Shown here: piece after piece, positions 935 through 23,487 of the stretch
Position numbering within the stretch: the first letter of the stretch is position 1
Layout of the letters: each line of letters opens with the position of its first letter
Assembly: GCA_036149055.1 (NCBI GenBank)
Contig: JAYZQJ010000013.1
Span: 1 to 23,559 of the forward strand
Length of the DNA stretch: 23,559 nt
Direction: 5' to 3'
Source: Myxococcota bacterium
Lineage (GTDB): Bacteria > Myxococcota_A > Polyangia > Polyangiales > Sandaracinaceae
The notes under the pieces: model-generated
Database searches by the model: none
What the model was told of the DNA's origin: nothing
What the model saw: the letters and a program-made list of their open reading frames with translations, nothing else
Program-made: the position numbers and the translations under genes

Positions 935-1013
935 CGGCGGACGGTCGTACCACACGCGGACCGCGCGCGAAAATGGGGTGACGCCGTGAAGGCTGCGTGT
1001 GATGCTTCGGCGC

Positions 1014-1304: not shown

Positions 1305-1343
1305 GCGATTCCCAGCGGGTCCCGGCCGGGCTACAAGCAGGGC

Positions 1344-2792: not shown

Positions 2793-2901
2793 CCGGGCGG
2801 CCGGCGCGTCGCGACAAGCCCGGCGCGGCCTGATACCGTGCGCGGGCGGGGGCAGCGCGGGCGGAGGGTCGCCCGGTCCGCCCCCTGACGGGGAGCCACG
2901 G

Positions 2902-3965: not shown

Positions 3966-4031
3966 TCTCCCGATCGCGAACCGTGAGATCGCCACTGGCG
4001 CGCCGGCCCGGGCTGCCCCAGGTAGGCGGAC

Positions 4032-4550: not shown

Positions 4551-5191
4551 TGGCCCGCTTCGACGCCATCCTCTTCGACCTCGACGGCACGCTGCTCGAC
4601 TCGATCGGGCTGATCCTCGAGAGCTACCGCCACACGCTCGAGGCGCACGGCCTTCCCGCGCGCACCGACGAGGACGTGCTCTCCGGGCTCGGCACCCCGC
4701 TCGAGGCGCAGTTCCGGCGCTGGGTCGGCGACGACGGACCGGTCGCGGCGCTCGTCGAGACCTACATCGCCCACAACCTCGAGGTGCACGACCGCTTCGT
4801 GAAGCCCTACCCGGGGGTCACGGAGCTGGTGCGGCGGCTCGACGGGACGCCCCTCGCGGTCGTGACGAGCAAGCGCCGCCGCGGCACCGAGATGGGGCTG
4901 CGCGCGCTCGGGCTCGAGGACGCGTTCGCGGTGCTCGTCTGCGCCGACGACGTCGAGCGACCCAAGCCTCACCCCGAGCCGGTGCACCGGGCGCTCCGCT
5001 TCCTCGGCGCCGACCCGGCGCGCACCGTCTTCGTCGGCGACGCGGTGCACGACGTCGAGTCCGGCAAGGCGGCCGGGGTGCGCACCGCGGCGGTGACCTG
5101 GGGCGCCGGAGCTCGCGAGGCCCTCGCGCGCTCGGCGCCGGACACGGTGAGCGACGACGCGGCCGAGCTCGCCCGCTACCTGATCGGCTGA
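4550..5191 (+). CDS. HAD-superfamily hydrolase (PpaX/phosphoglycolate phosphatase-like)
   Basis: ATG overlaps the upstream stop (TGATG). Motif I FDLDGTLLDS, II VVTSK, III KPHPEP, IV FVGDAVHD. Confidence 0.92.
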   Translation: MARFDAILFDLDGTLLDSIGLILESYRHTLEAHGLPARTDEDVLSGLGTPLEAQFRRWVGDDGPVAALVETYIAHNLEVHDRFVKPYPGVTELVRRLDGTPLAVVTSKRRRGTEMGLRALGLEDAFAVLVCADDVERPKPHPEPVHRALRFLGADPARTVFVGDAVHDVESGKAAGVRTAAVTWGAGAREALARSAPDTVSDDAAELARYLIG

Positions 5192-5238
5192 CCGTCCGCC
5201 GCGCCAGTCGCTCGTCGAGATCGGGTATCGTCGGGCGG

Positions 5239-5751
5239 GTGACGCGCTCGATCCTCTCGCTCGCCCTGCTCCTCACCCTCGGCTGCGGAGGCGCCCAGGC
5301 GGCGCCCACCCGGGCCGGCGAGTACGCGGGGCCCAACCAGCTGGAGTTCCTCGTGACCGCGCCGGTGCAGCGTCAGATGCCGCCGGAGCGGCACAACGGC
5401 GTGGCCCGGGTGACCGGCGACGACGGACAGGTGGTGACGCTCGAGCTCGAGATGTTCGAGGGCGGCGACACCTGCGCCGTGACCGCGACCCGCGCGGCGC
5501 CGTCGGGGGAGCGCGAGACGCTGACGGTGAACGCCGGGCACGAGTGCTCGTCGCGCTTCGCCTACGAGGGCAGCCCGGTCGCGGCGACGGTCCTGATCGA
5601 GCAGGGCACGGTGCGCTTCGGCCCGGGCACGCTCGAGGTGGAGCTGTCGGGCGAGTTCGTCGCCGAGGTGGCGTCGGCGAGCGGGACGTCGGAGGTCGAG
5701 GGCATCGCGCGCTGGCAGCTGGACGCGCGCAGGCGAGGGGGGACGCGATGA
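5239..5751 (+). CDS. Hypothetical lipoprotein, 170 aa, beta-rich
   Basis: MTRSILSLALLLTLG-C lipobox; alternating beta-strand pattern with one Cys pair; stop overlaps the next start (ATGA). Confidence 0.75.
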   Translation: MTRSILSLALLLTLGCGGAQAAPTRAGEYAGPNQLEFLVTAPVQRQMPPERHNGVARVTGDDGQVVTLELEMFEGGDTCAVTATRAAPSGERETLTVNAGHECSSRFAYEGSPVAATVLIEQGTVRFGPGTLEVELSGEFVAEVASASGTSEVEGIARWQLDARRRGGTR

Positions 5752-8078: not shown

Positions 8079-8090
8079 GGGACAGGGCTA

Positions 8091-8161
8091 GGGGACGGAG
8101 TTAACTTGTGAACTTACGTAGGTCGAACGCCTACACAAGTTCACAAGTTCACTCCGTCCCC
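8091..8161. repeat. Long inverted repeat/hairpin between convergent genes (REP/MITE-like or bidirectional terminator)
   Basis: Arms 8091-8115 (ggggacggagttaacttgtgaactt) and 8137-8161 (aagttcacaagttcactccgtcccc) are complementary at 24 of 25 positions, with an inner gtagg/cctac stem. Confidence 0.85.
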
Positions 8162-8176
8162 CCCCTGCGGAGGAGC

Positions 8177-9088
8177 CTACGGCGCCGCGACGACCTGGTT
8201 CCGTCCGCCTTGCTTGGCCTTGTAGAGGGCCTCGTCGGCGGTGCGGATCAGGGCGCCCGGGTCCTGCTCGGCTTCGAACTGGGCGATGCCGACGCTGGTG
8301 GTGACCTCGAGCGCGCCGCCGGTCGGGAGCGGGATCCGGAGCTCGGCGATCGTGGCGCGCACGCGCTCGGCCAGCTGGAGGCCCTGGTACATCGCGGTGC
8401 TGCGGCAGAGCAGGGCGAACTCCTCGCCGCCGTAGCGGGCGAAGAAGTCCTCCTTGCGGATGACCGCGCGGACCGCCTCCGCGGTGCGGCGCAGGACCTC
8501 GTCGCCCACCGGGTGGCCGTGGGTGTCGTTGACCGACTTGAAGTGGTCGAGGTCGAGCAGCATCAGCACGACGTCGGTCCCGTGGCGTTTCGCGTGGGCG
8601 AGGTCCTGCTCGAGGCGGTCCATCAGCGCGCGGCGGTTGTACGCCCCGGTCAGCGGATCGCGCACCGCCGCCTGGTAGAGCTGCTGCTGGAGCTCCTGGT
8701 CGACCTCGTCCTGGAGGCTGAACTTGAGGAGGATCTCGGCGCCCACCTGGATCTTGTCGCCGTCGCTGAGCGGCGACGGAGCCTCGATCTTCACGCCGTT
8801 GAGCAGGGTGCCGTTCGTCGAGCCGAGGTCCTCGACCAGCGTCTCGTCGCCGCGCCGGAAGATGCGGGCGTGCTTGCGTGACACCCCGTCGCCGTTCACC
8901 CGCAGCTCGCACTGAGCGCTGCGACCGATGGTGACCTCGGTGTCCAGGCGCACCAGTCGCCCCGCGTCGGCGCCCGCCACCAGCACGAGCACGGGGCTCA
9001 AGCGGCTGGGTCGGACCGCCTCGCGGAACGCCTTCGCGTCGATGATCGCGGTGCCCTCGTCTTCGGCCTCGTCGAAAGGGGAGCCCAT
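8177..9088 (-). CDS. FHA-domain diguanylate cyclase (FHA-GGDEF), 303 aa
   Basis: FHA motifs IGRS, VSRKHA, DLGSTNGT. GGDEF domain with D.LTG.YNRR, DLDHFKSVND.HGH..GD, I-site RKED and A-site RYGGEEF. Start ATG 9088 chosen by composition. Confidence 0.93.
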   Translation of the reverse strand: MGSPFDEAEDEGTAIIDAKAFREAVRPSRLSPVLVLVAGADAGRLVRLDTEVTIGRSAQCELRVNGDGVSRKHARIFRRGDETLVEDLGSTNGTLLNGVKIEAPSPLSDGDKIQVGAEILLKFSLQDEVDQELQQQLYQAAVRDPLTGAYNRRALMDRLEQDLAHAKRHGTDVVLMLLDLDHFKSVNDTHGHPVGDEVLRRTAEAVRAVIRKEDFFARYGGEEFALLCRSTAMYQGLQLAERVRATIAELRIPLPTGGALEVTTSVGIAQFEAEQDPGALIRTADEALYKAKQGGRNQVVAAP

Positions 9089-9262
9089 TCGGTTCCCAGC
9101 ATATTCGAAAGCTGCGGCCGGAATCCACGATTCGTCTGCACGCCGTCGCACCTCGGACGCGCCGATGTGGGATGATGGCCACGGCCGGGGGGCAGCGGGA
9201 CCGCGCGTGGGCGTTGGCACGCGGCGTGACGGTGCGTCCTCCGCCATCGAAAGGGAGGGCCC

Positions 9263-9679
9263 ATGAACGCTTCGAGAATTCGCCACGCGCTGACCTTCGC
9301 CATCGTCCTCGCGCTGCCGCTGGGGGCGGCGGCGCAGGAGACCCCCACCGAGCTCAGCGTCTCCGAGGTGCAGCTGGGGAGCTCGCTCGACCGCGGCCGC
9401 GTCGAGTCGCCGACCACCACCTTCACCCACGCCGACGGCCGCATCTACGCGGTCGTGCAGGTCCAGAACCCGGCCCGCACGGAGACCCGGGTGCGCGTCT
9501 CGCTCGAGCGGGTGGACGGCCCGACGCGCTCCGGCGTGCTCCTCGACATCCCGGCCCGGCCCCGCTACCGCACGGTGGCCAGGTTCGTTGCGCGCCAGGC
9601 GCCCGGACGATATCGCGTCGTCGTGCGCACCGAGGACGGCACCGAGCTGTCGAGCACCGAGCTGACGATCTCGGAGTAG
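9263..9679 (+). CDS. Secreted DUF2914-like Ig-fold protein
   Basis: GGGAGG RBS; signal peptide ending AAA-Q; C-terminal 'YRT.......PGRYRVVVRTEDGTEL' pattern typical of DUF2914. Confidence 0.75.
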   Translation: MNASRIRHALTFAIVLALPLGAAAQETPTELSVSEVQLGSSLDRGRVESPTTTFTHADGRIYAVVQVQNPARTETRVRVSLERVDGPTRSGVLLDIPARPRYRTVARFVARQAPGRYRVVVRTEDGTELSSTELTISE

Positions 9680-9717
9680 CGGCTCGACACGCGGCGTTCA
9701 GCCCCCATGCTGTCAGG

Positions 9718-10479
9718 GTGAAGCCGCGTTGGTCACCCGGGCTGCCGCCGGAGCTCGTCATCTACGACTCCACGCACCCTTGCCCGTACCTCGAGGGACG
9801 GGACGCGCGTCTGCCGATGCGCCTCCCGTCCCGCCCGCTCCGTCCCGCGGAGTTCGACGTGCGCCTCGCCGGAGGGGATCGGCGGCACGGCGCGTTCCTC
9901 TATCGCCCCAGCTGCCCGAGCTGCGCGGCGTGCGAGGCCATCCGCATCCCGGTGCAGGAGTTCGCCTTCACCAAGAGCCACCGCCGGGTCTGGAACAAGG
10001 CGCGGCGCGCGCTCCGCGTCGAGGTCGGCCAGCCGATCGCCGACGCGCGCCGGCTCTCGCTCTACGAGAAGCACAAGCGCGAGCGCTCTCTGATGGGCTC
10101 CTCGAGCGAGCCGCTCGACCTGAAGGGCTACGAGGGCTTCCTGGTGGAGCGCTGCTGTCCGAGCTTCGAGCTGCGCTACTTCGACGGCGACACGCTGGTC
10201 GGCGTCGCGATCACCGACCGCGGGCACGACGCGCTCTCGGCGGTCTACTGCTTCTGGGATCCCGAGTACGCCTCGCTCAGCCTCGGCACCTTCTCGATCC
10301 TCGAGCAGATCCGGTTCTCGCGCGAGCTCGGCTTCACCCACCTCTACCTCGGGCTCTTCATCGAGGAGAACGCGCACATGCGATACAAGGCGCGTTTCCG
10401 CCCGCACGAGCGCCTGATCGACGGGCAGTGGCGCCGCTTCGAGCGTCAGTCGGCGCAGCAGCGGAACCCGGTCGAGTAG
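9718..10479 (+). CDS. bpt: Bacterial ATE1-like aminoacyl-tRNA-protein transferase (aspartate/glutamate leucyltransferase, Bpt)
   Basis: CPYL, G.RR.G.FLYRP.CPSC.AC..IRIPV.EF, LSAVYCFWDP....SLGTFSIL.QI, YLG..I....M.YK..F.PHE.L. The GTG start at 9718 is approximate. Confidence 0.9.
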   Translation: MKPRWSPGLPPELVIYDSTHPCPYLEGRDARLPMRLPSRPLRPAEFDVRLAGGDRRHGAFLYRPSCPSCAACEAIRIPVQEFAFTKSHRRVWNKARRALRVEVGQPIADARRLSLYEKHKRERSLMGSSSEPLDLKGYEGFLVERCCPSFELRYFDGDTLVGVAITDRGHDALSAVYCFWDPEYASLSLGTFSILEQIRFSRELGFTHLYLGLFIEENAHMRYKARFRPHERLIDGQWRRFERQSAQQRNPVE

Positions 10480-11441
10480 TCCCAGTGGCCGCGATCGTGC
10501 GCGGTGGTGCGGTAGAGGCAGCCCTCGCCGTTGCGCACCGTGTCCACGTAGAACCCGCCGCGGAAGGTGCCGGTCGGGTCGGCGGTCCACTCGTGCAGGT
10601 TGCCCATCATGTCCATCACGCCCTCGGCGGTGACGCAGCCGGGGTGCGCGCCGGTGGGCGCGAGCGAGTCGGGGAGCTGGTTGATGCACGCGTCGCCCAG
10701 CCTCGACCAGATCCAGTCGTCGGACGTGCCGAACCGCTCGACGGCGGGGTGCCGCGCGCGGGCGTCGTTGCACTGGCCATCCACCCGGGCGTCGCCGTAG
10801 GGATAGACGCGATCCGACGCGCCGCGACAGGCGCGGAGCCACTCCGCGTCGGTGCAGAGTCGCTTGCCCGCCTCCAGGCATGCCGCCTCCGCCTGAACGC
10901 CGGTGACGTAGCCTTGCGGGACCGCCTCGGCGAGCGAGAGCGCGCGCACCCGGTTCGTGCCCGGGTTGTGGAACGGCGACCAGCTCCCGAGCGGGCCGCG
11001 GTCGTCGACGAGCACCAGGCTCGCCTCGAAGCGATCGATGCAGAACGAGTCGACGCGCACCATGCCGTCGGGGCAGCCGGGGCTCCCGGGCTCCTCGACG
11101 AGGCCCTCGTTGGGGCGCGGCATGTAGTCCGGATCGCAGGCGCCCGCGTCGCCGGAGCCGCCGTCCGAGGTCACGGTGCAGCACTGGATCTCGGCCGGGC
11201 CGGGGCAGAAGCCCGGGGTGGGCGCGCGGTCCCCGACGCAGTCGTCCACGTGGAGGCAGCGGCCGGGCCGTCCGTCCACCGCGCACGCGAGCCCCGCGTC
11301 CCCGGGCGGGCCGGCGTCCGGGGCCTGCGCGTCGAGGACCTGCGCGTCGAGGGCCTGCGCGTCGAGGAGCATGGCTGCGTCCGTCGCCGTCGGCGGGTCG
11401 CCGCAGGCGAGGAGCAGGAGAGCCAGGAGCGCGCGCCGCAC
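10446..11441 (-). CDS. FGE-sulfatase (SUMF1/EgtB/PvdO-fold) domain lipoprotein with N-terminal Cys-rich module
   Basis: GTG start, RRALLALLLLA-C lipobox; CPDGMV, FCIDRFEA, GKRLCTDAEWLRAC, YPYG, DMMGNLHEW, RGG, GFRCC. Confidence 0.88.
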   Translation of the reverse strand: MRRALLALLLLACGDPPTATDAAMLLDAQALDAQVLDAQAPDAGPPGDAGLACAVDGRPGRCLHVDDCVGDRAPTPGFCPGPAEIQCCTVTSDGGSGDAGACDPDYMPRPNEGLVEEPGSPGCPDGMVRVDSFCIDRFEASLVLVDDRGPLGSWSPFHNPGTNRVRALSLAEAVPQGYVTGVQAEAACLEAGKRLCTDAEWLRACRGASDRVYPYGDARVDGQCNDARARHPAVERFGTSDDWIWSRLGDACINQLPDSLAPTGAHPGCVTAEGVMDMMGNLHEWTADPTGTFRGGFYVDTVRNGEGCLYRTTAHDRGHWDYSTGFRCCAD

Positions 11442-11472
11442 GCGGAGATGATGAACGGGAACCGCCGGCCCG

Positions 11473-12189
11473 TCACACCGCGTACGGCGCGAAGACCTCG
11501 ACGTCGACGCCGGCCGCGTAGTGCACGAGCGCAGGCGGGCCGCTGACCGGAGGCAGCCCGGCGGCGGCGACGAGCGAGTCCTCGACCTCGTGCACGGTCG
11601 CGCGCTGCGCCGGGTAGGGCGGGTGGTGCACCTGACCGAGCACCAGCTCGTCTCCCTTCTCGGAGTAGAGGAGGTAGCGCTCGAGGAAGAAGTGCTCGAG
11701 CGAGCCGGGCGCGGACGGGCCGAGCGCCTCGCCCACCTCGTAGCGCACCGCGTGGCGAGCCCCGTCGGAGCGGCGGACCGTGCGGTACTCCGTGACCCCA
11801 TCCGCGCTCGCCGACGTCATGCGCGCGTGGTGGTAGGGGAGCCCCCAGCCGACGCGGGCCGCCTGCACCGCGAGCCAGCTCGACGCCTCGAGGGAGAAGA
11901 AGTAGACGCCGGGGCCCTCGCCCTCGAGGTGCACGTACGTGCGGAGGTTGCACTCGAGGAAGTCGAACCCGAGCGCCTTCGGCCACCAGCTCGGCGCGAT
12001 CTCGCGCATGAGGAACGGGACCACGCCGACGAACGCCTCGCCCTCCCACAGGTCGAGCGAGAGCCGCGCCGGGACCAGCGGCCGCAGCGCCTCGACCGGC
12101 ACCGGCCAGTGCAGGAACAGGAGCTCCCGCCAGCGCTGCGTCCCCGCGTTCTTCCCCTCCGGCCGCTGCGTCGGCGCGATCCGATCCAT
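11473..12189 (-). CDS. DUF2071 (YqjF) family protein
   Basis: Q.WRELLFLHWPV..EALRPLVP..L.LD, F.E.NLRTYV, PGVYFFSLEA, LPY..ARM, LE.F..ERY.LY, V.H.P. Confidence 0.92.
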   Translation of the reverse strand: MDRIAPTQRPEGKNAGTQRWRELLFLHWPVPVEALRPLVPARLSLDLWEGEAFVGVVPFLMREIAPSWWPKALGFDFLECNLRTYVHLEGEGPGVYFFSLEASSWLAVQAARVGWGLPYHHARMTSASADGVTEYRTVRRSDGARHAVRYEVGEALGPSAPGSLEHFFLERYLLYSEKGDELVLGQVHHPPYPAQRATVHEVEDSLVAAAGLPPVSGPPALVHYAAGVDVEVFAPYAV

Positions 12190-12267
12190 GCCGCACCATA
12201 CCCTCGCGGCGCCGTTCGGGGACGGCGTTTTCCGGGACGTGTAGGATGGGGCGTGACCGAGGTGCCG

Positions 12268-12819
12268 ATGCGGTTCGCGGACACGCCGCTGCTCTGGACG
12301 GCGGACGGGATCTACTCGGAGGCCGAGTGCGCGCGGATCCGGGACGAGATCGAGGCGGCCTCGCCGTCGCTCGCCACGAACAACCCGATGTACCGGAACC
12401 AGGATCGGGTGATGCGCGACGATCCGGCCGCGTCGAGCGAGCTCTTCGCGCGCCTGAGGCCGCACCTCCCCGAGCGCATCGGAGACCTCACCCTCGTCGG
12501 GCTCAACGAGCGGCTCCGCTACTACCGCTACCGCGCAGGCCAGCGCTTCGAGCCGCACATGGATCACTGGCACCGCGCGAGCGAGACGCGCATCACGCTG
12601 CTCACCGTGCTCGTCTACTTCAACGACGACTTCGAAGGCGGCGAGACCCGGTTCCTCGAGCAGGTCGAGGAGACCGTGGTCCCGAAGCCCGGGCGGGCCG
12701 CGATCTTCCAGCACAAGATCCGCCACGAAGGCTGCGAGGTCCGCCGCGGCGCCAAGTACGCGCTCCGCACCGACGCCCTCTACGAGGCCCCGACCCCCAT
12801 CCAGCTGACGCGCGCATGA
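12268..12819 (+). CDS. 2OG-Fe(II) oxygenase, prolyl-4-hydroxylase-like
   Basis: GAGGTG RBS; GLNERLR.YRY..GQ.F.PHMD (HxD), T.L.Y.NDDFEGGET.F, HEG (distal His), KY.LRTD. Confidence 0.92.
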   Translation: MRFADTPLLWTADGIYSEAECARIRDEIEAASPSLATNNPMYRNQDRVMRDDPAASSELFARLRPHLPERIGDLTLVGLNERLRYYRYRAGQRFEPHMDHWHRASETRITLLTVLVYFNDDFEGGETRFLEQVEETVVPKPGRAAIFQHKIRHEGCEVRRGAKYALRTDALYEAPTPIQLTRA

Positions 12820-12956
12820 GCGGATCGCGGGTGTGGCCACACGATCGGCGCGTTCGGTCGGACACACGCGCGACCGGAGGGAGACGCGTCGGGCCCCGCC
12901 GCCGGGCTGGCACGTGACGTGCGCCTCGGAGCTCCGGAGAAGACCGGAGGGGTGTG

Positions 12957-15900
12957 ATGCGAGGAACGACGATCGACGTCGGGCCGGGAGGGCGACGTGC
13001 GCTCTGGCTCTTGGTGGGAGGGGCGCTGCTCATCCCGGGGTGTCCGAGCGGGGGCGCGCCGCCGCGGGCGACGATCCGGGCGGAGCTCGCGTCGCCGACG
13101 GGCAAGATGGTGGACCTCGGCGAGGCGACACCGCGCGCGCCGGATCGCGGCGGGATCCTCGAGGACGCGCTCGAGGGCGTGGTCGAGACCGAGGAGGAGA
13201 CGCTCGGGGCGCGCATGCAGATCCGCCCGCTCCGCATGCCGCACCCGCCCCGTGGCGCCTCCGCGCGCTTCAACTTCGGGCAGGGGCGGCGCGGCTGGGT
13301 GACGGCGATGCCGCGCGCGGAGCTGTTGACCTCTCCCGCCTTCCACGACGGCAAGGTGTTCCTCGGCGGCGGCTTCGTCTCGCACCGCTTCTACGCCTTC
13401 GACGCCTACAGCGGGGAGCTCTCGTGGTCGATGCCCGCGCCGGACGGCGGACCGACGGCCGCGATCATCGAGGACGACAAGGTCATCTACAACACCGAGA
13501 GCTGCACGATCTTCGTCGCCGACGCGCACACGGGGGAGCTCGCCTGGAGTCGCTGGCTCGGCGACCCCCTGATGAGTCAGCCCGCGGCCGCGCACGGGCT
13601 CGTGTTCAGCGCCTACCCCAAGGACGGCGGCCATCAGTTCGGCGCGTTCCGGCTGAGCGACGGCGAGCCGGTGTGGGCGACGCCGATCCCCGCCGACGTG
13701 ATCCAGGCGCCGCAGGTGGTGGGCGAGTCGGTCTACTTCGCGACGATGGACGGCACGGCGCACCGGCTCCAGGCGCGCACCGGCCGGGTGCAGTGGCGGC
13801 GCGACGTGGGCGCGTCGAGCGCGGTCTGGGTCGACCGCGAGAACGTGCTCGTGGCGCGGCGACGCGGCGGAGCCCGGAGCCCGCGGGAGTCGATGCTGGT
13901 GCTCGACGCGGCCAGCGGCCGGACGCAGCACGAGAGCGCGCACTTCGCCGCCCCCTACCTCGCGGGGAACAGCCGCGACCGCGAGCTCGCCTCGGGCACC
14001 GCCGGGGCGTGGGGCAACGTCCCGCACGGCGATCACCTCGGGCTGCGCAACGTGGCCAGCGGCTGGGCGTTCCAGGGCAGCTCCCCCGCGGTGGCCGACG
14101 GGCGCGCCTACTTCTCGATCGCGGGCGAGGTGCTCGCGCGCGACATGGAGACGGCGGAGACGGTCTGGCGTCGGCGCTACGCGGAGGCGGGGGACGCGCA
14201 GGCCCTCAGCCCGCCCGCGGTGGTCGGGGGCCTGCTGGTCTTCGGCACCGTCGACGGACACCTCGTGGCGACCGACATCGACACCGGCATGACGGTCTGG
14301 GCCTACGACGTCGGCGAGCCGGTGGTCTTCCAGCCGATCGTCGCCCAGGGCTGGGTCTACTTCGCCACCGGGCGCGGCAATGTCGTCGGGCTCGAGCTCG
14401 GCGACGCGATGCTCGACGGCTGGCACATGTGGGGCGGCAACGCGCGTCACGCCGGGCTCGTCGAGACGGCGGGGCAGGTCGATCCGCACCTCCTGGAGAG
14501 CCTCGAGCGCCCCGGCCGCGGCTCGCTCCGCGCCGTCGCGCTCAGCCGCGATCCGGAGGCCGAGGAGACGCCGGTCGAGGAGGAGGGCGACTCGGTCGAG
14601 CGCGAGCTCCCGCTCCGGGGCACCGAGGTCGAGGCGCGGATCAGCGGCCGGGTGGCGGAGGTCTTCGTCACCCAGCGCTTCGAGAACGACGGGCCCGAGC
14701 CGATCGAGGCCGTCTACCTCTTCCCGCTCCCCGACGACGCGGCGGTCGATCGCATGGAGATGCGGATCGGCGACCGCGTGATCCGCGGGGTGATCCGCCA
14801 GCGTCGAGAGGCGCGGCAGGTCTACGAGCAGGCGCGCAGCGAGGGCCGGCGCGCGGCGCTCCTCGAGCAGCAGCGCCCGAACCTCTTCGCGCAGCGGGTG
14901 GCCAACCTCCAGCCGGGCGACCGGATCGACGTGCGGCTCCGCTACGTGCAGGTCCTGCCCTACGAGGACGGCGAGTACGCGATGACCTTCCCGATGGTCG
15001 CGCCGCGCCGGTACGACCCCGCCGAGCCGGACGCGGACGGGGCGGAGACCGCGGTGAGCGCCACGAGCGCCTTCGTCGACGAGCAGCCGCCGCTGACGAT
15101 GCGCGTGTCGCTCGCGCCCGGGCTGCCGCTGGCCTCCGTGGCCTCGCCCAGCCACGAGGCGACCATCGAGCGCGACGGCGACACCGCCCGCGTGCGTCTC
15201 GAGGCCGAGGGCGAGGCGCGCACCCGCGACTTCACCCTGCGCTACGCGCTCGCCGGCGACGCGCCCCAGGCCACCCTGTTGGCCCACCGCGAAGCCGAGC
15301 ACGGTTACTTCACGCTCCTCGTGCAGCCGCCGGCCGCGCCCGGCGAGGGGACGATCGCGCCCCGCGACGTGACCTTCGTCGTCGACACCTCGAGCTCGAT
15401 GCACGGCCGGCCGCTGGCGCACGCGCGCGCGGTGGTGGAGGCGGTGATCGACGGCCTCCGCCCCGAGGACCGCTTCGACGTGATCGGCTTCAGCGATCAG
15501 GTGCGGCAGCTCGGCGCGCGGCCGCGGAGCGACGACGCGGTGCGGGACGCGCACGCCTTCCTGGGGGAGCTGCGCGCGGCCGGGGCCACCGAGATGGTGC
15601 CGGCGATCACCCGCGCGCTGCGCACCGAGACGAGCGCCGAGCGCCTGCCCATCGTCGTGCTCGTCACCGACGGGTTCATCGGCAACGAGGCGGACGTGCT
15701 GCGCGCGATCGCGACCGAGCTCGGGGAGCACCGCGTCTACGCGTTCGGCGTCGGCGGCAGCGTGAACCGCTTCCTCACCGAGCGCGCCGCCGAGATCGGC
15801 CGCGGGCGGGCGAGCCACGTGGGCCTCTCCGAGGATCCGGCGGTGGCCGCGGCGCGCTTCGTGACCCAGATCGACCGGCCGCTCTTCACCGACGTCGAGG

Positions 15901-16904
15901 TGGACTGGGGCGGGCTCGAGGTGAGCGACGTCTACCCGCGGCGCCTGCCGGATCTCTTCGCCGGGAAGCCGCTCGAGGTGCGCGGTCGGTTCGCGGCGGG
16001 CGGCGAGGCGACGGTGCGAGTGCGGGGCACGGTGAACGGTCGCCGCTTCGAGCGCGCGTTCCCGGTGAGCCTGCCCGCGGCGCCGACGCCCGACGGGCCC
16101 CACGCGTCGCAGGCCTCGCTCTGGGCGCGAGCGGCGGTGCGCGATCGCATGAACCGGCTGACGCTGCGCGACGACCCGGCGCTCATCGCCGAGGTGACCG
16201 AGCTCGGGCTCGCTCACCACATCGTCACGCCCTGGACCAGCTTCGTGGCGGTCGAGGAGATCGCCACGGAGGAGGAGGGCGACGCGCCCGAGCCCGAGGC
16301 CCGGGCCACCGTCTCGCCGGCGCGCGCGCTGCCCGGCGATCCGGAGATCCGGATCCCGGCCCCCGAGGACGCGCGGCAGGTCACCGTGATCCTGCCCTTC
16401 GGCGAGAGCCTCGAGGCGGGCTTCGAGGACGCGCTCGGCATGTGGACCGCGCGCTTCCTCATCCCGCGCGACGCCGACGAGGGCACCTACCCGATCGAGG
16501 TGCTGATCACCCACGCCGACGGGCGGCTCGAGCACCTCCGGCTCTGGTACACGGTCGACGAGACCGCGGCCCAGGTGCACCTGGAGGTCGACGGCGAGCT
16601 CAGGCCGGGCGGAGAGATCACGCTCCGCGCCGAGCAGGTGATCACCGAGGCGGATCTCGCGCAGGTCGGTCGGCGTCCCGGGGAGCTGAGCGAGGAGCGC
16701 GCCCTGCTGCTGAGCGACGCGCGCCGGGTGGAGGTGCGCACGCCGGGCGGCGAGGTGATCGACCTCGAGCGGGCGGCCCCGAACGCCTGGGAGGGCGTCT
16801 GGACGATCCCTCGAGACGCGCGCGGGACGCTGTCGCTCGACGTGGTGGTGGTCGACATGGCCGCCAACGTCACCCACCAGGCGCTGACCCTGGAGGTCGA
16901 GTGA
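12957..16904 (+). CDS. Lipoprotein: PQQ/BamB-type beta-propeller + VIT + vWA (MIDAS) + C-terminal beta-sandwich region, about 1315 aa
   Basis: GGAGGGG RBS; lipobox LIPG-C. Blade motifs (AFDAYSGELSW, DAHTGELAW, DIDTGMTVW) at about 13290-14460. VIT at about 14607-14970 (LPL..T.V.A.I.G.VA.V.VTQ.F.N...PIEAVYLFPLP..AAV..M.M.IG.R.I.G). vWA DTSSS/GAT/VTDG from 15363. ITIH-like tail 'LG..H.IVTPWTSFVAVEE'. Confidence 0.9.
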   Translation: MRGTTIDVGPGGRRALWLLVGGALLIPGCPSGGAPPRATIRAELASPTGKMVDLGEATPRAPDRGGILEDALEGVVETEEETLGARMQIRPLRMPHPPRGASARFNFGQGRRGWVTAMPRAELLTSPAFHDGKVFLGGGFVSHRFYAFDAYSGELSWSMPAPDGGPTAAIIEDDKVIYNTESCTIFVADAHTGELAWSRWLGDPLMSQPAAAHGLVFSAYPKDGGHQFGAFRLSDGEPVWATPIPADVIQAPQVVGESVYFATMDGTAHRLQARTGRVQWRRDVGASSAVWVDRENVLVARRRGGARSPRESMLVLDAASGRTQHESAHFAAPYLAGNSRDRELASGTAGAWGNVPHGDHLGLRNVASGWAFQGSSPAVADGRAYFSIAGEVLARDMETAETVWRRRYAEAGDAQALSPPAVVGGLLVFGTVDGHLVATDIDTGMTVWAYDVGEPVVFQPIVAQGWVYFATGRGNVVGLELGDAMLDGWHMWGGNARHAGLVETAGQVDPHLLESLERPGRGSLRAVALSRDPEAEETPVEEEGDSVERELPLRGTEVEARISGRVAEVFVTQRFENDGPEPIEAVYLFPLPDDAAVDRMEMRIGDRVIRGVIRQRREARQVYEQARSEGRRAALLEQQRPNLFAQRVANLQPGDRIDVRLRYVQVLPYEDGEYAMTFPMVAPRRYDPAEPDADGAETAVSATSAFVDEQPPLTMRVSLAPGLPLASVASPSHEATIERDGDTARVRLEAEGEARTRDFTLRYALAGDAPQATLLAHREAEHGYFTLLVQPPAAPGEGTIAPRDVTFVVDTSSSMHGRPLAHARAVVEAVIDGLRPEDRFDVIGFSDQVRQLGARPRSDDAVRDAHAFLGELRAAGATEMVPAITRALRTETSAERLPIVVLVTDGFIGNEADVLRAIATELGEHRVYAFGVGGSVNRFLTERAAEIGRGRASHVGLSEDPAVAAARFVTQIDRPLFTDVEVDWGGLEVSDVYPRRLPDLFAGKPLEVRGRFAAGGEATVRVRGTVNGRRFERAFPVSLPAAPTPDGPHASQASLWARAAVRDRMNRLTLRDDPALIAEVTELGLAHHIVTPWTSFVAVEEIATEEEGDAPEPEARATVSPARALPGDPEIRIPAPEDARQVTVILPFGESLEAGFEDALGMWTARFLIPRDADEGTYPIEVLITHADGRLEHLRLWYTVDETAAQVHLEVDGELRPGGEITLRAEQVITEADLAQVGRRPGELSEERALLLSDARRVEVRTPGGEVIDLERAAPNAWEGVWTIPRDARGTLSLDVVVVDMAANVTHQALTLEVE

Positions 16905-18670
16905 TGCGCGGGCTCGCGCTGCTGTCGCTGCTCGTCGCGCTCCCGGCGTCGGCGCAGCCGCGGGTCGAGGAGGTCATCACCGCCACCGCCGACGCGCGCG
17001 ACGTGGCCCGCTACGGCGACCGTGTCTTCGTGGCCACCGAGGGCGGCCTCCTGGTGCTGCGGGACGATCGGGTCGAGCGGGTGATCACCGAGGGCTTGCC
17101 CGGCGCGAGGCTCCGCTCGGTCAGCGTCATCGGGGATCGCCTCTGGGTCGGCGCGGTCGAGGGCACCGCGGTGCTCGACGCCGAGCTGAACGTCGTCGCC
17201 CGCCACGCGCCTCGCCGGGTGCGCCGGGCGGTGGCCTTCGCCGGCTCCACCTGGCTGGCCAGCCACGGCGGCGGCCTCCTCCGGGTGGACGGCGACCGCG
17301 TGCGCTCGGTGTCGCTCGGCCGCGCGCACGCCTACGTGCGGCTCACCGATCTCGCGGTGGTGGGAGACGAGCTGTGGGTCGCGAGCCATGGGGTGGGCGT
17401 GCTCCGGGTGAGCGCCGAGGGCCGGGTCGTCGGCCGGGTGCGTCAGCGGAGCGGCCTGCCGAGCGACTACACGTGGCGGCTCGCGCGACACGGAGGCGAG
17501 GTCTTCGTGGCCACCATCGCCGGGGTCGGCGCGGTCACCGAAGACGGCGCGGTCGTGCGCGACCATCGGGTCACCGCGCTGGCGCGGCGCCTCCCGGTCC
17601 GCGACGTGCGCGACGTGGCCCTCGCCGGCGATCGCGTCTGGCTCGCCACCTTCGGCCGCGGCCTCTGGCGCGCCGACGGCGATCGACCGCGCCGGGTGGG
17701 CCGCTACGAGCGAGCGCACGCGGTGCTGGCGGCAGACGGAGACCTGCCGCTGGTCGCCCACGCCGAGGGGGTGAGCCGCGGGGCGCGCGCGATCACCTCG
17801 GGCGGCCTGCCGAGCGGGGACGTCACCGCGATCGCGCGGGCCTTCGGAGCGCTGTGGGTCGGCACCTTCGGCGACGGCCTCGCGCGCCGCCGGGGCGGCC
17901 GCTTCGAGCGCGTCGGTCAGGCCCACGAGCGCTGGACGGTCGACGAGCGCATCAACGACCTCGCGGTCACCGGGCGCGGCCCGGGCGGTCGAGGAGGTGA
18001 GCGGCTCTGGATCGCGACCGACCGTGGCCTCTGGTGGCACGACGGCCGCGTGTTCTCGCGCGTCGAGGACCCGGCGGGCCCGAGCTGGATCCACACCACC
18101 GCGCTCCACGTCGACGGCGACGCGCTCTGGGTCACCACCAGCCGAGAGCTCTGCCGCTTCCGCCGGGGCTGGCGCTGCTGGACCGGCGACCCGAGCTTCC
18201 CCGTCGCTCAGCTCCACGCGGTCACCACCGATCGCGCCGGCCGGGTCTGGGTCGGCAGCCTCCACGGGCTCTACCGCTTCGACCCGGAGGCCGAGCGCTT
18301 CCACCGCCACACCGTCTCGAGCGGCGCGCTCCCCGTCGACTGGGTGACGGCGGTGGTGCCCTGGGGCGACGGCGTGCTCGCCGGCACCTATCACGGCGGC
18401 CTCTCGCTCGGCGACGGCGAGCGATTCCAGGTCATCCGCGAGGGACAGGCGGGCCTGCCGAGCGGCTGGGTGAACCCGCACGCGATCCGTCGCCGCGGCG
18501 ACACCCTCTACATCGGCACCCTCGAGCGCGGCCTGGTCATCGGCCGCCCCGGCGCCTTCGCTCACCTCACCCGCGCCGACGGCCTCCCGAGCGACGACGT
18601 GACCGACGTGCTCCCGGACCGCGGCGGCGTCTGGGTGGCGACCCGAGGCGGCCTCGCGCGCCTCCGCTGA
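16904..18670 (+). CDS. Secreted tandem beta-propeller protein (two-component-regulator/Reg_prop-like blades), 588 aa
   Basis: ATG overlaps the upstream TGA; signal peptide ending ASA-Q; about 14 repeats of 'lWvgT.gGl' with GLPS.DV linkers; no kinase or TM domain. Confidence 0.87.
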   Translation: MRGLALLSLLVALPASAQPRVEEVITATADARDVARYGDRVFVATEGGLLVLRDDRVERVITEGLPGARLRSVSVIGDRLWVGAVEGTAVLDAELNVVARHAPRRVRRAVAFAGSTWLASHGGGLLRVDGDRVRSVSLGRAHAYVRLTDLAVVGDELWVASHGVGVLRVSAEGRVVGRVRQRSGLPSDYTWRLARHGGEVFVATIAGVGAVTEDGAVVRDHRVTALARRLPVRDVRDVALAGDRVWLATFGRGLWRADGDRPRRVGRYERAHAVLAADGDLPLVAHAEGVSRGARAITSGGLPSGDVTAIARAFGALWVGTFGDGLARRRGGRFERVGQAHERWTVDERINDLAVTGRGPGGRGGERLWIATDRGLWWHDGRVFSRVEDPAGPSWIHTTALHVDGDALWVTTSRELCRFRRGWRCWTGDPSFPVAQLHAVTTDRAGRVWVGSLHGLYRFDPEAERFHRHTVSSGALPVDWVTAVVPWGDGVLAGTYHGGLSLGDGERFQVIREGQAGLPSGWVNPHAIRRRGDTLYIGTLERGLVIGRPGAFAHLTRADGLPSDDVTDVLPDRGGVWVATRGGLARLR

Positions 18671-18672
18671 TT

Positions 18673-19017
18673 CAGCCACTCGCAGGAAACGAGGAAGGGT
18701 GGAAACGAGGAGGCGAGAGGGGAAGGGTCTGCCAGAGTGACCCGGCCGCCGGCTACCGGGCCGCCGCTCCGCTCGGCGCCAGCCACTCGCAGGAAGCGAG
18801 GAAGGGTGGAAGCGAGGAGGCGAGAGGGGAACGGCCCGCCACGATGACCGGCTACCGGGCCGCCGCTCCGCTCGGCCCCCGGCGGCGAGCCACCATCCCG
18901 CCGCCCATCGGTCTCGCGGCGAAGCCGCACCTCCTCACTTCCCACCTTCCTCGCTTCCTGCGAGTAGCGGCCGCTCCAGCTTCCCGGCCGGGCCCCGGCG
19001 GCGAGCCATCATCCCGC
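18673..19017. repeat. Composite intergenic repeat: two direct copies and one inverted copy of a purine-rich unit
   Basis: cagccactcgcaggaa(a/g)cgaggaagggtggaa(a/g)cgaggaggcgagaggggaa at 18673 and 18780; ccggctaccgggccgccgctccgctcggc at 18749 and 18848; inverted copy at about 18931-18965; 25-nt direct repeat at 18877-18901 and 18993-19017. Confidence 0.9.
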
Positions 19018-19575
19018 TCAGGGCGCGCTCGGCGGCATGATCATCATGCCGGCCATCATGTGGTGGACCGGGGGGCGGTGCTTCTCTTCGGTCAGCCGGC
19101 GCTGCGCGGCGGTGGGGCGCGCGTCGTCGTCGGTCACGTCGGCGGTCACCGCGCGGGTCTCGGTGGGGCCGCCGTCGTCGACGTCGCCCGCGTCCGGCTC
19201 GAGCGCGCTCACCGGCTGCATCGGGGGCCCGAGGTCGAGGGGCGCGACCTCCTGCGTGATCTCCGCCTCACCCGGGGCCTCGCTGGTCGCGCAGCCCGCG
19301 GTCAGGGCGCTGGCGAGCACCACCCCGCCCGCCCAGCGCGGGGCCCGGCTCCGGGGCGGGAGGAAGACGGCCTCGTCGTCGGCGCTCATCGCCAGCCGGA
19401 CGCAGAGGCGCTCGCCGGTCGCGCGCCGCACCCGGGCTTCGGCCTGAGCGCGGGTCATCACCGAGAGATCGATGACGGTCCGGGCGCAGCTCGCGCAGTG
19501 ACGGCCCTCGCCGCGCGGCTCCATCTCGGACCAGGGCTCCTCGCAGGCTTCGGCGACGCGGAATTCCATGGGCAT
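19018..19575 (-). CDS. Membrane-anchored protein with N-terminal 4-Cys domain, 185 aa
   Basis: GAGG RBS before ATG 19575 (alternative 19569). C...W..M.....RHC..C...V.DLS.MT..........LCVR domain, then hydrophobic segment ending LTAGC, acidic linker and HHMMAGMMIM tail. Confidence 0.8.
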   Translation of the reverse strand: MPMEFRVAEACEEPWSEMEPRGEGRHCASCARTVIDLSVMTRAQAEARVRRATGERLCVRLAMSADDEAVFLPPRSRAPRWAGGVVLASALTAGCATSEAPGEAEITQEVAPLDLGPPMQPVSALEPDAGDVDDGGPTETRAVTADVTDDDARPTAAQRRLTEEKHRPPVHHMMAGMMIMPPSAP

Positions 19576-19609
19576 GGGACCTCGGACCGCCGAAGTCCTT
19601 GGCGGTTCC

Positions 19610-21974
19610 TCACGAGGCCATCTTCGCGACCACCTCGCGGAGCAGCGCCGCCAGGTCCTCGGCGACCTCGGCCGGGGCGTCGATCGCGACGCCGCCATCC
19701 GGTCGCGGCCTGATCTCGAGCTGGTCGACGAGCGAGGGCGGCTCGGCGCGCGACGCCGCCGGCTCGTCGACGGGCGGCTCGGCGATCGGCTCCCCACAGG
19801 GACATCAGCCGCTGGACCAGGCTCGTGTCCTCGAGCACGACGTGATCGGCGTCCGAGTCGAAGAGCCCCTCGAAGAGCGCCTGCTTCGCGCCGCACAGCT
19901 GGGCGATGCGGCCCTCGATCGAGGGCTCGGAGACGAGGTCGTAGACGTCGATGGGCTCGGTCTGCCCCAGCCGGTGGATGCGCGCGATCCGCTGCTCGCG
20001 CACCGCCGGGTTCCACGGGAGCTCGAGGTTGACGCACGCGGTCGCGGCCCGCTGGAGGTTCAGCCCGACGCCGCCCGCGTCGCTCGCGAAGAGCACGCGG
20101 GTGGCCGGGTCGTCGTGCAGCTCGACCACGCTCCGGTCGCGCTGCTTCGGCGACTCCGCGCCGGTGAAGAAGACCGAGCGGAGGCCGCGCGCCGCGAGCG
20201 GCTCGCGGGTGGCCCACCAGGCGAGCGCGAGCATGCGCCGCCACTGGCTGAAGACGATGACCGTGCGGCCCTGATCGACGACCAGGCTCTGCAGCAGCTC
20301 GCGCAGCGCCTCGAGCTTGGGCGCCTGCGCGTCGGCGAGGGCGGCCTGGGTGGCCGGCTGGTCGCGCATGCCCTCCCAGCGCTCCTCGAAGTCCCGCTGC
20401 GCGAGCCCGTTCGCGATGACCCGCTGCCGGGTGAGGAGGGAGATCAGCCGGATCTGCTCCTCCGGCGTGAGCCTCCGCTTCTGCGCGATCTCCACCAGGA
20501 TGGCGATGCGCTGGTCGAGGGCGTCGTGGCGGCGGATCTGCCCGGACGTCATCGGGACCGGCACGACGGTGTCCGTCCGGGGCGGCAGCTGGTCGAGGAT
20601 CTCCGCGCGTCGCCGTCGTAGGAAGCAATGCGCGATGCGGCTCCGGAGCGATCCGAGGTGGGTGGCGCAGCCGACGCCGCCGTGCACCACCGGGATCCGC
20701 CAGGTGGGGGCGAGCGCGCCCGGGTCGACGAACTCGAGGATCGACCCGAGCTCCGGGAGCCGGTTCTCGAGCGGCGTCCCGGTGAGCGCGAGCCGGTAGG
20801 CGCCCCCCAGCCGCTTCACCGCGCGCGCGGTCTGCGTGTGTGCGTTCTTGATGCGCTGCGCCTCGTCGAGCACCACCATCTCTGGCGCCCACGCCTCGAG
20901 CGCCTCGCCGTCGCGGAGGAGCAGCTCGTAGTTGATCACCAAGAAGCCCTCGCGCGTGGTCGCATAGAGGCGCCGCCGACGCGGCGGAGGCCCCTCGACG
21001 ACCTCGACCGGGGCGTCCGAGAAGGCCAGCCACTCGCGCCGCCACTGCGACTTCAGCGGGGCAGGCACCACCAGCAGCCCCCGCCGGACCGCGCCGCTCC
21101 GGTGCAGCGCGTGACAGGCCGCGATCGCCTGCGCCGTCTTGCCGAGGCCCATGTCGTCGGCGAGGAGGAGGCGGCCGGAGTCGAGCAGCCGCTCGACGCT
21201 CTCGCGCTGGTACGCGTAGAGCGGCCGACGGAGGGTCTCCAGGAGCCCGGCGCCCAGCGGCTCCCGGTCAGGGGGCGAGGCCTCCTCGAGGAGCGCCCGC
21301 ACCGCCGGGGCGACGCGCTCGGGGTGCTCTCTGGCCCAGCGTCGCGCGGCGGCGAGCCAGCGAGGCGATCCCTCCGGAGGGCGCCGCGCGTCGCCCGGCC
21401 CGCGCCACCCGCCGACGAAGGCGGGCTCGCGCCCGCGCTCCCCGCGCCAGCGCAGGCGTGACCACCACGGGTCGTCTCCGAGGACGGGCCGCACCGGATC
21501 CCACTCGAGCGCGTGACGCAGCGGCGGCGCGCTGGCGGCGGCGATCCACGCGTCCGGCTCGCCGGCCAGGTGGGCCAGGGCGGCGAGCACGTGCGCGCAG
21601 AGCCCGAGGGAGGACAGCCGGAAGTCGGGGCAATCGCAGCTCGCGCGGAGCGGGAACAGGCCGCCCAGGTGCGGGCGCCACGGGAGGCCCCGGAGCCGCC
21701 ACTCACCCAGCGCCTCGTCAGGCGCCTCGAGGGCGATCGACCTCGACTCCAGCCAGCGCCGCGTCGCGGCCTCGAACGCGGCGCGCTGCAGCGGCCAGCC
21801 CGCCGAGCGATAGAGGTCGATGACGTGGCGGGGGAGGAAGCCGCGCGGCAACGGATCGAGGCGCGCGCCGGCCAGGCCGGTGAGCGTGCGGAAGGCCTGC
21901 GTCTCGTCGACGCCGAAGAGATCGATCTGCCGCGCGGAGCTGAGGCCGCCGTGATGGGTGCCGGGGAGGGGCAT
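19610..21974 (-). CDS. SWIM zinc-finger SNF2-family (DEAQ) helicase/ATPase, apparently frameshifted near the 3' end
   Basis: SWIM CDC...LCAH; LYAYQ; LADDMGLGKT; VLDEAQRIKN; LTGTPLEN; IVFSQW; SDAGGVGLNLQ; WNPAVREQRIARIHRLGQ. As given, the frame runs to 19458 in junk-like sequence. Removing one G at 19792-19795 gives a natural tail ending at TGA 19610. The start is uncertain (21974, 21998 or 22026). Confidence 0.88.
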
Positions 21975-22022
21975 GACCCCCCTGACGCAGGTGCGCACGT
22001 CGGACTGACGGAAGCGCGAAGA

Positions 22023-22928
22023 TCATCGCCAGAGCGCCTCGTCGCCGGCGTGGGCCACCAGGTGATCGACGAAGGCGCGGACCCGGGGGGCGAGCTGCCG
22101 GACCTCGGGCCAGATCAGCCAGAGCTCTCCGCGCATCGCGTGGAGCGACGGGAGGACCGGCTCGAGCTCCCCCCGCTCCACGTAGGGCCGCGCCATCAGG
22201 TCGGGCGCGACCGCGATCCCCGCGCCGGCGGCGGCCGCGGCGGTGATGAGCGCGAAGTCGTTCAGCACCATGACCGTCCGGAGGGGCGCCTCGCGCTCGA
22301 CCCCCTCGTCGTCCCGCAGCACCACCCGGTCGCGCGGCAGGACGCGATGCTGCACGAGATCGTGCGAGGCGAGGGCCGGCGGCGCGGTCGGCCGTCCACG
22401 CCCGTCGAGGTAGGAGGGCGACGCGTACAGCCCCGCGCCCATCCTCGCGATCCGGCGCCCCGCCAGCCCGCTGCTCCCGGCCCGCGGGGCGTCGGGGCGG
22501 AGCGCGAGGTCGAAGCCCTCGCCGGCCAGATCCACCACCCGGTTGGTCAGGTCGAGCTCGACCACGACCTGCGGGTATCGCGCTCGAAACGACGTGAGGA
22601 GCGTCGCGAAGCCGCCGGCGTGGCCGAGGTCCTGCGGCGCGGTCAGCCGGAGCACGCCCGATGGGGTCTCCTGGCGATCCTCGAGCTCCCGCTCCACCTC
22701 GGCGAGCGTCCGGAGGGCGGCCACGCAGCGGGCGTGCAGGCGGGCGCCGTCCTCGGTGACCGTCACGCTGCGCGGCCCCCGGTTCAACAGCGGCAGGCCG
22801 AGCTGGTCCTCGAGCCTGGCCACCCGCCGGCTCACCGTCGACTTCGGCACCCCGAGCTGAGCGGCGGCCGCGGTGAGGCTCCCCGCGTCCACGACCCGCA
22901 CGAAGGTGTCGAGCTCCACCAGGTTCAC
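22023..22928 (-). CDS. LysR-family transcriptional regulator (CrgA-like), 301 aa
   Basis: GTG 22928; HTH F.RVVDAGSLTAAAAQLGVPKSTVSRRVARLEDQLG..LL.R; substrate domain P.G.LRLTAP, VDL..EGFDLALR, AAAAGAGIA..P, PRVRAFVDHL. Confidence 0.95.
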   Translation of the reverse strand: MNLVELDTFVRVVDAGSLTAAAAQLGVPKSTVSRRVARLEDQLGLPLLNRGPRSVTVTEDGARLHARCVAALRTLAEVERELEDRQETPSGVLRLTAPQDLGHAGGFATLLTSFRARYPQVVVELDLTNRVVDLAGEGFDLALRPDAPRAGSSGLAGRRIARMGAGLYASPSYLDGRGRPTAPPALASHDLVQHRVLPRDRVVLRDDEGVEREAPLRTVMVLNDFALITAAAAAGAGIAVAPDLMARPYVERGELEPVLPSLHAMRGELWLIWPEVRQLAPRVRAFVDHLVAHAGDEALWR

Positions 22929-22935
22929 GGTCGAA

Positions 22936-23002
22936 GGTTGCCTCAGCGCAACCCATGGTTGCAACCGAGCCCGGTGGTTGCGCAGGTGGAACTTCTTACG
23001 AT
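22936..23002. promoter_or_regulatory. Divergent lysR/doxX control region with dyad operator-like sites and a -10-like hexamer
   Basis: GGTTGC-N6-GCAACC (22936-22953), palindrome GGTTGCAACC (22957-22966), GTTGC-N6-GGAAC (22977-22992), TACGAT (22997-23002). Confidence 0.6.
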
Positions 23003-23024
23003 TGGCCTCGAAAGAGAGACGACG

Positions 23025-23441
23025 ATGAAGATCACCCTCTGGATCCTGCAGGCGCTCCTCGCGCTCCTCTTCGCCATGGCCGGCCTGTTCAAGCTCGCGA
23101 CCCCGATCGACGAGCTCGTCGCGAGCGGCATGACCTACGCGGCCGATTACCCCTGGATGCTCTACCTGGCCGGCGGCGCCGAGGTGCTGGGCGCGATCGG
23201 GCTCATCCTCCCGGCCGCGACCCGTATCAAGCCTGGTCTCACCCCTCTCGCGGCGGCGGGCCTCGCCCTGGTGATGTTCCTGGCGATCGGCCTCCACCTG
23301 GTGCGTGGAGAATTCGCGGCCCTCGGCGGCCCGGCCGTCCTGATGGCGCTCAGCCTCTTCGTCGCCTGGGGGCGCTGGAAGAAGGCGCCGATCACGCCCC
23401 TCCACCTTCGTTCTCGGAGCTTGGAGCTCTCTGAGCGGTAG
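23025..23441 (+). CDS. DoxX-family membrane protein, 138 aa
   Basis: ATG after gagagac; LWILQALLALLFAMAGLFKL, G.AEVLGAIGLILP..T.I.P.LTPLAA.GL...M..AI..HL.RGE; 4 TM. Confidence 0.92.
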   Translation: MKITLWILQALLALLFAMAGLFKLATPIDELVASGMTYAADYPWMLYLAGGAEVLGAIGLILPAATRIKPGLTPLAAAGLALVMFLAIGLHLVRGEFAALGGPAVLMALSLFVAWGRWKKAPITPLHLRSRSLELSER

Positions 23442-23464
23442 ACGCGAGGGACGACAATTACTCT

Positions 23465-23487
23465 CGCAAAGACGCAAAGGCGCAAAG
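23465..23487 (+). repeat. Short cgcaaag periodic repeat (intergenic repeat arm)
   Basis: ctctcgcaaagacgcaaaggcgcaaag carries three cgcaaag units at 8-nt spacing downstream of doxX; any partner arm may lie beyond the window. Confidence 0.55.

Follow-up and report, generated by a model that had tools for sequence, protein, structure and literature searches.

Two overlapping genes in a 23,559-nucleotide stretch of DNA from a Myxococcota bacterium (Sandaracinaceae; assembly GCA_036149055.1, contig JAYZQJ010000013.1) raise a question about a single peptide bond. We call the whole stretch the window; the pair occupies 12957..18670 on its forward strand. Gene 1 (12957..16904) encodes a predicted lipoprotein of 1315 residues with a PQQ-type propeller, a VIT domain, a vWA domain and two bacterial Ig-like (BIg) domains. 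Gene 2 (16904..18670), joined to it by a TGATG overlap and predicted to be translationally coupled, encodes a putative secreted double beta-propeller of 588 residues. An earlier note, made from the letters of this DNA, had proposed that gene 1 resembles the inter-alpha-inhibitor heavy chains (ITIH), that it cleaves itself at the bond Asp1128-Pro1129, and that it cross-links to exopolysaccharide or prey surfaces with the propeller as its partner. Checked in the sequence, the overlap, the gene limits and the Asp codon (16338-16340) are as that note gave them. Is the bond a cleavage site, or is it part of the fold? We put the chances at about even that the pair forms an exported heterodimer that combines a body with a metal site, an Ig stalk stiffened by calcium and a propeller for ligand binding, and in which the Asp-Pro is structural.

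The Ig tail and its propeller partner

The tail of gene 1, residues 1116-1315, consists of two BIg domains. The first (residues ~1116-1203; 16302..16565), of Big_13/SiiE type, is delimited by profiles, covariation and a structure model; the second (16566..16901) carries a helical insertion. A profile of 60 tail sequences matches SiiE (2YN3, 3e-10) and Bap (7DM0, 2e-7), 46 of the 60 members match Big_13 at E <=0.1, and hhalign aligns SiiE-type repeats with domain 1 at 94.6% and with domain 2 at 96.3%. The query alone scores 22.5 bits against Big_13, under the Pfam cut-off of 27, in a match that begins at Pro1129 (model position 29 of 102). The ESM Atlas returns one Big_13 cluster for the tail at 0.84, below its threshold of 0.9. 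Designed helical repeats also appeared as a match to the Ig1 profile; they were rejected, the shared word being GDPE only. Pfam gave no ITI_HC_C or VWD match in the gene 1 protein, and neither its sequence nor its Pfam matches contain FrpC-type EF-hand-like calcium loops or an RTX family.

In SiiE, three aspartates are described as forming the type I inter-domain calcium site (PMC5466336). D1201, D1254 and D1300 of the tail fall on these aspartates in the alignment. D1201 and D1300 are present in all aligned non-redundant sequences of the myxobacterial set and D1254 in 76% of them; three of the 31 acidobacterial matches lack both D1201 and D1254. Calcium held by the three residues would be expected to stiffen the Ig pair. 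Both tail domains are thus like SiiE/Big_13 repeats, but there are only two of them, they sit on a VIT-vWA body, and the loop leading into strand B has ~7 fewer residues and closes with Asp-Pro.

Does the propeller belong with this tail? Within the window's phylum, 66 of 401 genomes have the tail, and neighbours were examined at 60 of the 77 tail places other than the query's own. A propeller homologue lay downstream, ending within ~2 kb, at 45 of these 60 myxobacterial loci; it was fused to the tail at 4, 3.6 kb off at 1, on the other strand at 1 and not seen at 9. Five of these nine were tested, and all five have a full orthologue 7-27 kb away on the same contig; a sixth has it on another contig. 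A partly overlapping set of 61 loci, picked by a pattern that contains the motif and used for synteny only, gave 50 downstream, 3 fused, 4 with no room and 4 absent. Among 41 close genomes, 11 carry a full propeller and all 11 have the tail; two more hold a tail fragment (G023) or a weak match, and 28 have neither. The tail is found in 29 of 251 genomes of Acidobacteriota, 28 of which have the propeller. There the gene order is reversed: the propeller gene is adjacent in 26 of the 29 and upstream in 25 of these 26. Hence the suggestion that the propeller is a partner has gained ground: it is a conserved neighbour, adjacent or fused at 49 of the 60 myxobacterial loci, and the two remain linked where the gene order and the phylum are different, related genomes not being independent.

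Fusion tells the same story. A single clade for the eight fused forms was rejected by the approximately unbiased test (p-AU 0.0013), in a quick tree of 26 rows with the group named after the first tree was seen. We conclude that gene fusion arose more than once. The genome from which the window comes has nine VIT domains, two others of them with a PQQ propeller; it has one Ig tail and one Reg_prop-type propeller. Hence, the propeller appears to be inherited with the tail and not with VIT-vWA as such. Since the fusions also join the propeller right after Ig domain 2, we suggest that it docks on the Ig stalk. Paired covariation of tail and propeller (66 rows; effective number of sequences, 60) gave a top z of 8.1, within the range of 20 shuffled pairings (7.2-10.4).

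Gene 2 is a double propeller, as the earlier note had read it. Pfam assigns it to the Reg_prop type, and its nearest solved sequences are themselves double propellers: those of the Bacteroides hybrid two-component sensors (4A2L, 3V9F, 3OTT) and of PorZ (5M11). Unlike these proteins, it shows no kinase or membrane span, and it scores 15.3 bits against the PorZ family, for which the cut-off is 260. The second propeller (17789..18667) is the better conserved half, at 0.52 versus 0.39 for the first in 31 sequences. Its near-invariant residues F322, N351, W480, G494-T495-Y496, W522, N524, D565 and R581 mark a candidate ligand pocket; several conserved residues of this half recur in 6 of 6 acidobacterial orthologues.

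The VIT-vWA body and its predicted anchor

Upstream of the tail, the earlier reading of gene 1 stands in part. The VIT domain (residues 554-663; 14616..14945; PF08487, E 1e-35) and the vWA domain (Pfam residues 804-952; 15366..15881) are there, and the MIDAS motif (metal-ion-dependent adhesion site) is intact in the sequence (D810-S812-S814, T878, D905). D810 and D905 are invariant in one homologue alignment, and DxSxS is kept in most subfamilies. What went unmentioned is a PQQ_2/BamB-type beta-propeller at residues ~100-500 (13254..14456; Pfam PQQ_2, E 3.6e-30, with BamB matches). This propeller is fused to VIT-vWA in one clade of the family only (support 100). The closest named homologues of gene 1 are from Sandaracinaceae and other Myxococcota; a cultured species, Sandaracinus amylolyticus, also has a homologue (P0020). 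Two further PQQ-propeller-VIT-vWA proteins (G000:C181:13785 and G000:C167:44093) end in another short tail with two cysteines and have neither the Ig pair nor a propeller gene. Four VIT proteins on C52, C162 and C55 of G000, two of them in tandem on C52, have tails that look TPR/DUF2135-type by eye.

A signal peptide (12957..13043) with a lipobox-like Cys29, slightly atypical, was recognized by eye and by regular expression. The same expression finds the cysteine again in orthologues of the PQQ and TPR-DUF2135 classes and finds no lipobox in the VWA_4 and plain classes. The gene 1 product is probably exported and lipid-anchored at Cys29.

After the vWA domain come strands and helices (15882..16259) that complete ITIH-type hybrid domains by sequence match and in the model, the last being a T-S-F strand. 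The body (residues 546-1114) matches PARP4 at 2e-30, ITIH4 at 1e-29 (1.2e-29) and ITIH1 at 1e-12. Because it matches PARP4 as well as ITIH4, the strand before the linker is a mark of the VIT-vWA body in general. The VTPWTSF segment, which had been taken as ITIH-like, is accordingly not specific to ITIH; the score against TIGR03788, the marine proteobacterial sortase target family, is 458 bits over residues 556-1124, below the cut-off of 551.65. In fold, the likeness to ITIH1 that the earlier note had wished to see compared is clear. An AlphaFold2 model of residues 540-1315 has a mean predicted local distance difference test score (pLDDT) of 91.2 and a predicted template-modelling score of 0.74, and the best solved match to the modelled body is ITIH1 (6FPY; E 4.6e-30, TM 0.69 by target).

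Between body and tail lies an acidic linker (16260..16301), near which pLDDT falls below 50 only at residues 1103-1113. It is missing in the VWA_4 class and in the acidobacterial forms, and many homologues are without it; across homologues, 17-65 residues separate the last body (TS) strand from the Asp.

How does this protein compare with known ones? Like ITIH1-3, it has a VIT/hybrid and MIDAS-vWA body, here predicted to be exported, followed by an Asp-Pro. Unlike them, it has two BIg domains in place of a vWD-like pro-domain, no His after the Asp-Pro, a predicted lipid anchor, an extra PQQ propeller and a dedicated propeller partner, and we saw no equivalent of bikunin or TSG-6. ITIH4 has the VIT-vWA body too, likewise with a flexible linker and a propeller behind it (PMC7793589); here, however, the propeller is a separate Reg_prop-type gene with an Ig stalk between, and it is for ITIH4 that protease trapping is known. 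TIGR03788 proteins have the same body with a swappable C-terminal module; the present protein lacks their LPXTG-type tail, and no sortase was found among the window reading frames scanned. A vWA/hybrid chain paired with a propeller chain also recalls, by analogy, the integrin alpha/beta headpiece, and ITIH1 is reported to resemble integrin beta (PMC7170535). Unlike integrins, the pair has no membrane spans and uses a different propeller family, and, to judge from the genes, the propeller would dock on the Ig tail. In another setting, a Dictyostelium VIT-vWA protein is described as associating with a WD40 propeller protein (PMC10539598). Judged by its domains, the system resembles an ITIH or integrin-beta-type body and appears to lie outside the processed ITIH, vWD/RGM, FrpC, TIGR03788 and PorZ families.

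The Asp1128-Pro1129 bond

The earlier note placed the Gly-Asp-Pro at the start of a separate C-terminal region. We find it some 10 residues into Ig domain 1, past the first strand, in a P-G-D-P loop (16332..16343) that leads from the first strands to strand B. Covariation in 414 sequences couples V1119 with I1180 (z 13, rank 2) and A1124 with I1169 (z 9.5, rank 10 of all pairs), and in the model a short strand (1118-1120) and strand B (1130-1133) flank the loop (1125-1129); hence the motif belongs within domain 1. Couplings between the two Ig domains in the same alignment were scattered, and we treated them as noise.

Within the domain, the motif is nearly invariant in every set examined, as the note had supposed for a domain start. 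The sets were not picked by the motif, though the queries contained it and a slight bias is possible. Of 314 sequences examined, 295 span the site, and 292 of these have GDP; in the set thinned to 70% identity the count is 114 of 115. The three exceptions are one Ala gene counted twice and one fragment, apparently frameshifted. In a second branch (3437 matches in all), Asp-Pro is kept in 104 of 104 sequences, these being 120 listed less 16 close relatives of the query. Acidobacterial genome matches keep Asp-Pro in 31 of 31, and 7 of them have K, M or R where the Gly would be. Asp-Pro is followed by E, V, L, I, T or D, and in no set by His.

Does such constancy mean cleavage? The mere presence of a GDP is uninformative, because 0.67 are expected per 1315 residues in this genome and gene 1 holds a second one at residues 202-204 (13560-13568). 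That copy lies inside the PQQ propeller, and 69 of 75 close homologues retain its Asp-Pro; a structural Asp-Pro can thus be well conserved. Conservation at 1128 is nonetheless far beyond chance, and a chance tripeptide was rejected on that ground. Two further ideas were rejected: that a plain Pro-Gly turn explains the motif in full, since Gly is replaced in 7 of 31, and that Asp1128 helps to bind calcium at the Ig1-Ig2 site, since the Asp stays where the site is lost. An Asp-Pro that caps a turn is a common motif, and here it is the simpler reading than cleavage. It is not fully satisfying, because the Asp-Pro outlasts both the Gly and the calcium site.

In the heterodimer that we favour, both chains would be exported, the gene 1 product would be held by lipid at Cys29, and calcium at D1201, D1254 and D1300 would turn the two Ig domains into a stiff stalk on which the propeller docks. 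The MIDAS may then grip an acidic residue of a protein ligand, and the conserved face of propeller 2 may bind a second ligand, probably a glycan or a peptide. Asp1128-Pro1129 would cap the loop before strand B and stay uncut. Consistent with a structural Asp, the homologue with Ala in its place (L005:6001-6609, P0016) keeps the rest of its gene intact, departing at 3 of 244 conserved columns (the median is 1). In this homologue the nearby Ser1120 position is changed too. Several findings weigh on the other side. The Asp-Pro is steadier than a plain turn needs (31 of 31, with Gly lost in 7 and the calcium site in 3); the Ala variant comes from a single assembly and may be real or an assembly error; the likeness of the propeller to sugar-binding propellers is generic; and 17 other acidobacterial genomes have propeller matches and no tail, in longer frames of 880-1544 residues. 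The heterodimer could hold under any of the rivals below.

Perhaps the bond does break? Under this rival, a self-processing anchor would have arisen by convergence: Asp1128-Pro1129 is broken by way of an aspartic anhydride, an envelope glycan or amine becomes linked to the Asp now at the C terminus, the propeller presents the acceptor as PorZ presents anionic lipopolysaccharide (PMC8545088), and the Ig tail is a disposable or strand-tethered pro-piece. We regard this as unlikely, though several observations speak for it. Besides the constancy of the Asp-Pro in all three sets, beyond that of the Gly and the calcium site, there is its position: in vWD, RGM and ITIH the cleaved Asp-Pro is likewise described as coming after strand 1 and before strand 2 of a domain (PMC11670116; mechanism in PMC10880436), and FrpC cuts Asp-Pro in an unrelated fold (PMC7078468). 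Hence an intradomain site is compatible with cleavage. The fold of the tail is homologous to none of these, so cleavage here would be convergent, as would cross-linking and any action on exopolysaccharide or prey surfaces. The VWA_4 and plain classes, having no lipobox, show no evident anchor, and PorZ is among the nearest solved propellers. The tail also takes the place that sorting signals hold in other VIT-vWA proteins (TIGR03788). A paralogue on C261 is presumably another such protein, with a sorting signal in the place of the tail.

The homology argument from ITIH and vWD does not hold for this protein: the tail is two BIg domains and neither a vWD domain nor a self-processing module, the match to full-length ITIH4 stops at residue 1110, the motif is intradomain, the linker is often absent, and no set has a His after the Asp-Pro. 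The bond shares its place after the first strand with vWD/RGM GDPH domains and not their fold; unlike the FrpC module, it is not followed directly by EF-hand-like calcium loops. A conserved Pro of SiiE-type repeats is the counterpart of Pro1129 in the alignment, the gene 1 protein would already be lipid-anchored, the Asp-to-Ala homologue keeps its operon, and the likeness to PorZ is weak and of a general kind, with matches in 7 of 47 members and a best E of 2.8e-5. Sortase-free surface anchoring in its complete form, with an ITIH-like protein cut by itself in a bacterial Ig domain and a PorZ-like propeller presenting a glycan to the anhydride, is a doubtful proposition.

We found no literature on this gene pair by titles and the beginnings of abstracts, in a search with subscription journals mostly outside it. 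Bacterial VIT-vWA proteins are common and almost unstudied. The present analysis defines a large subfamily of them (3437 proteins from one branch) with a two-Ig tail, a near-constant Asp-Pro and one specific propeller in two phyla, and offers a minimal two-protein system for study. If the Asp-Pro were cut, it would be a new self-processing fold and a new way of tying proteins to the envelope; the bacterial Ig fold is not known to self-process in the parts of the literature examined. Were the complete anchoring scheme real, thousands of Myxococcota and Acidobacteriota proteins would amount to a bacterial parallel, reached by convergence, to heavy-chain transfer to glycosaminoglycans. If uncut, the pair would still be a bacterial vWA-plus-propeller complex.

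Operon variants and surroundings

Could the linker be bait for proteases? An envelope protease trap, ITIH4-like or working beside an alpha-2-macroglobulin-type defence, would have a foreign protease cut the exposed linker and the MIDAS then hold it. ITIH4 is one of the body's top sequence matches, and the linker is disordered in the model. DUF2135 genes are tied to macroglobulin operons, and they stand directly upstream at 10 of the 60 loci. A bait region is, however, no general feature, since the linker is missing from the VWA_4 class and the acidobacterial forms. The 27 neighbour proteins scanned include no macroglobulin, the remaining neighbours lying outside the scan. ITIH4 itself is described as having a C-terminal propeller and no bikunin-attachment consensus and as trapping proteases through its MIDAS (PMC7793589; see also PMC11538491). 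For the present pair we judge such a trap quite improbable.

Elsewhere the operon is richer. Directly upstream of the VIT-vWA-BIg gene stands a VWA_4 gene at 13 of the 60 loci and a TPR-DUF2135 gene at the 10 already mentioned, and directly after it a TPR protein of 1925-1928 residues at 3 myxobacterial loci (L039, L044 and L045, from 7528). A downstream macroglobulin gene was considered and rejected, the neighbour of 1925 residues being this TPR protein. An open frame of 2190-3023 residues follows the pair at 6 of 6 acidobacterial loci examined (L130-L135). Such accessory modules (the PQQ propeller here; VWA_4, TPR-DUF2135 or a giant protein elsewhere) may set the partners. That the pair is a scaffold or assembly subunit of a larger periplasmic cell-wall machine, of which the myxobacterial form is a reduced version, is suggested by these giant and TPR neighbours and is the least probable of the readings, since no such genes flank the pair in the window or at most of the 60 myxobacterial loci and the patchy spread (66 of 401 and 29 of 251 genomes) is unlike core wall machinery.

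No sigma-70 promoter or intrinsic terminator was found, and the one RNA run found gave short low-depth pieces that cover the upstream gene too. The flanking genes (918-12867 and 19458-23477) look unrelated to the pair. They encode an IMP dehydrogenase, a HAD hydrolase, a trypsin-like protease, an FHA-GGDEF protein, an arginyl-transferase, a DUF2071 protein, a 2OG-Fe oxygenase, a SWIM-SNF2 helicase, a DoxX protein and a LysR regulator; of these, the 2OG-Fe gene alone is found next to the pair again, in a genome of the same genus. Right after gene 2, at 18671-19010, lies a multi-copy intergenic repeat with direct and inverted copies, for which blastn gives 154 pieces spread over 41 of the genome's contigs and which we take to be a repetitive extragenic palindromic (REP)-type element.

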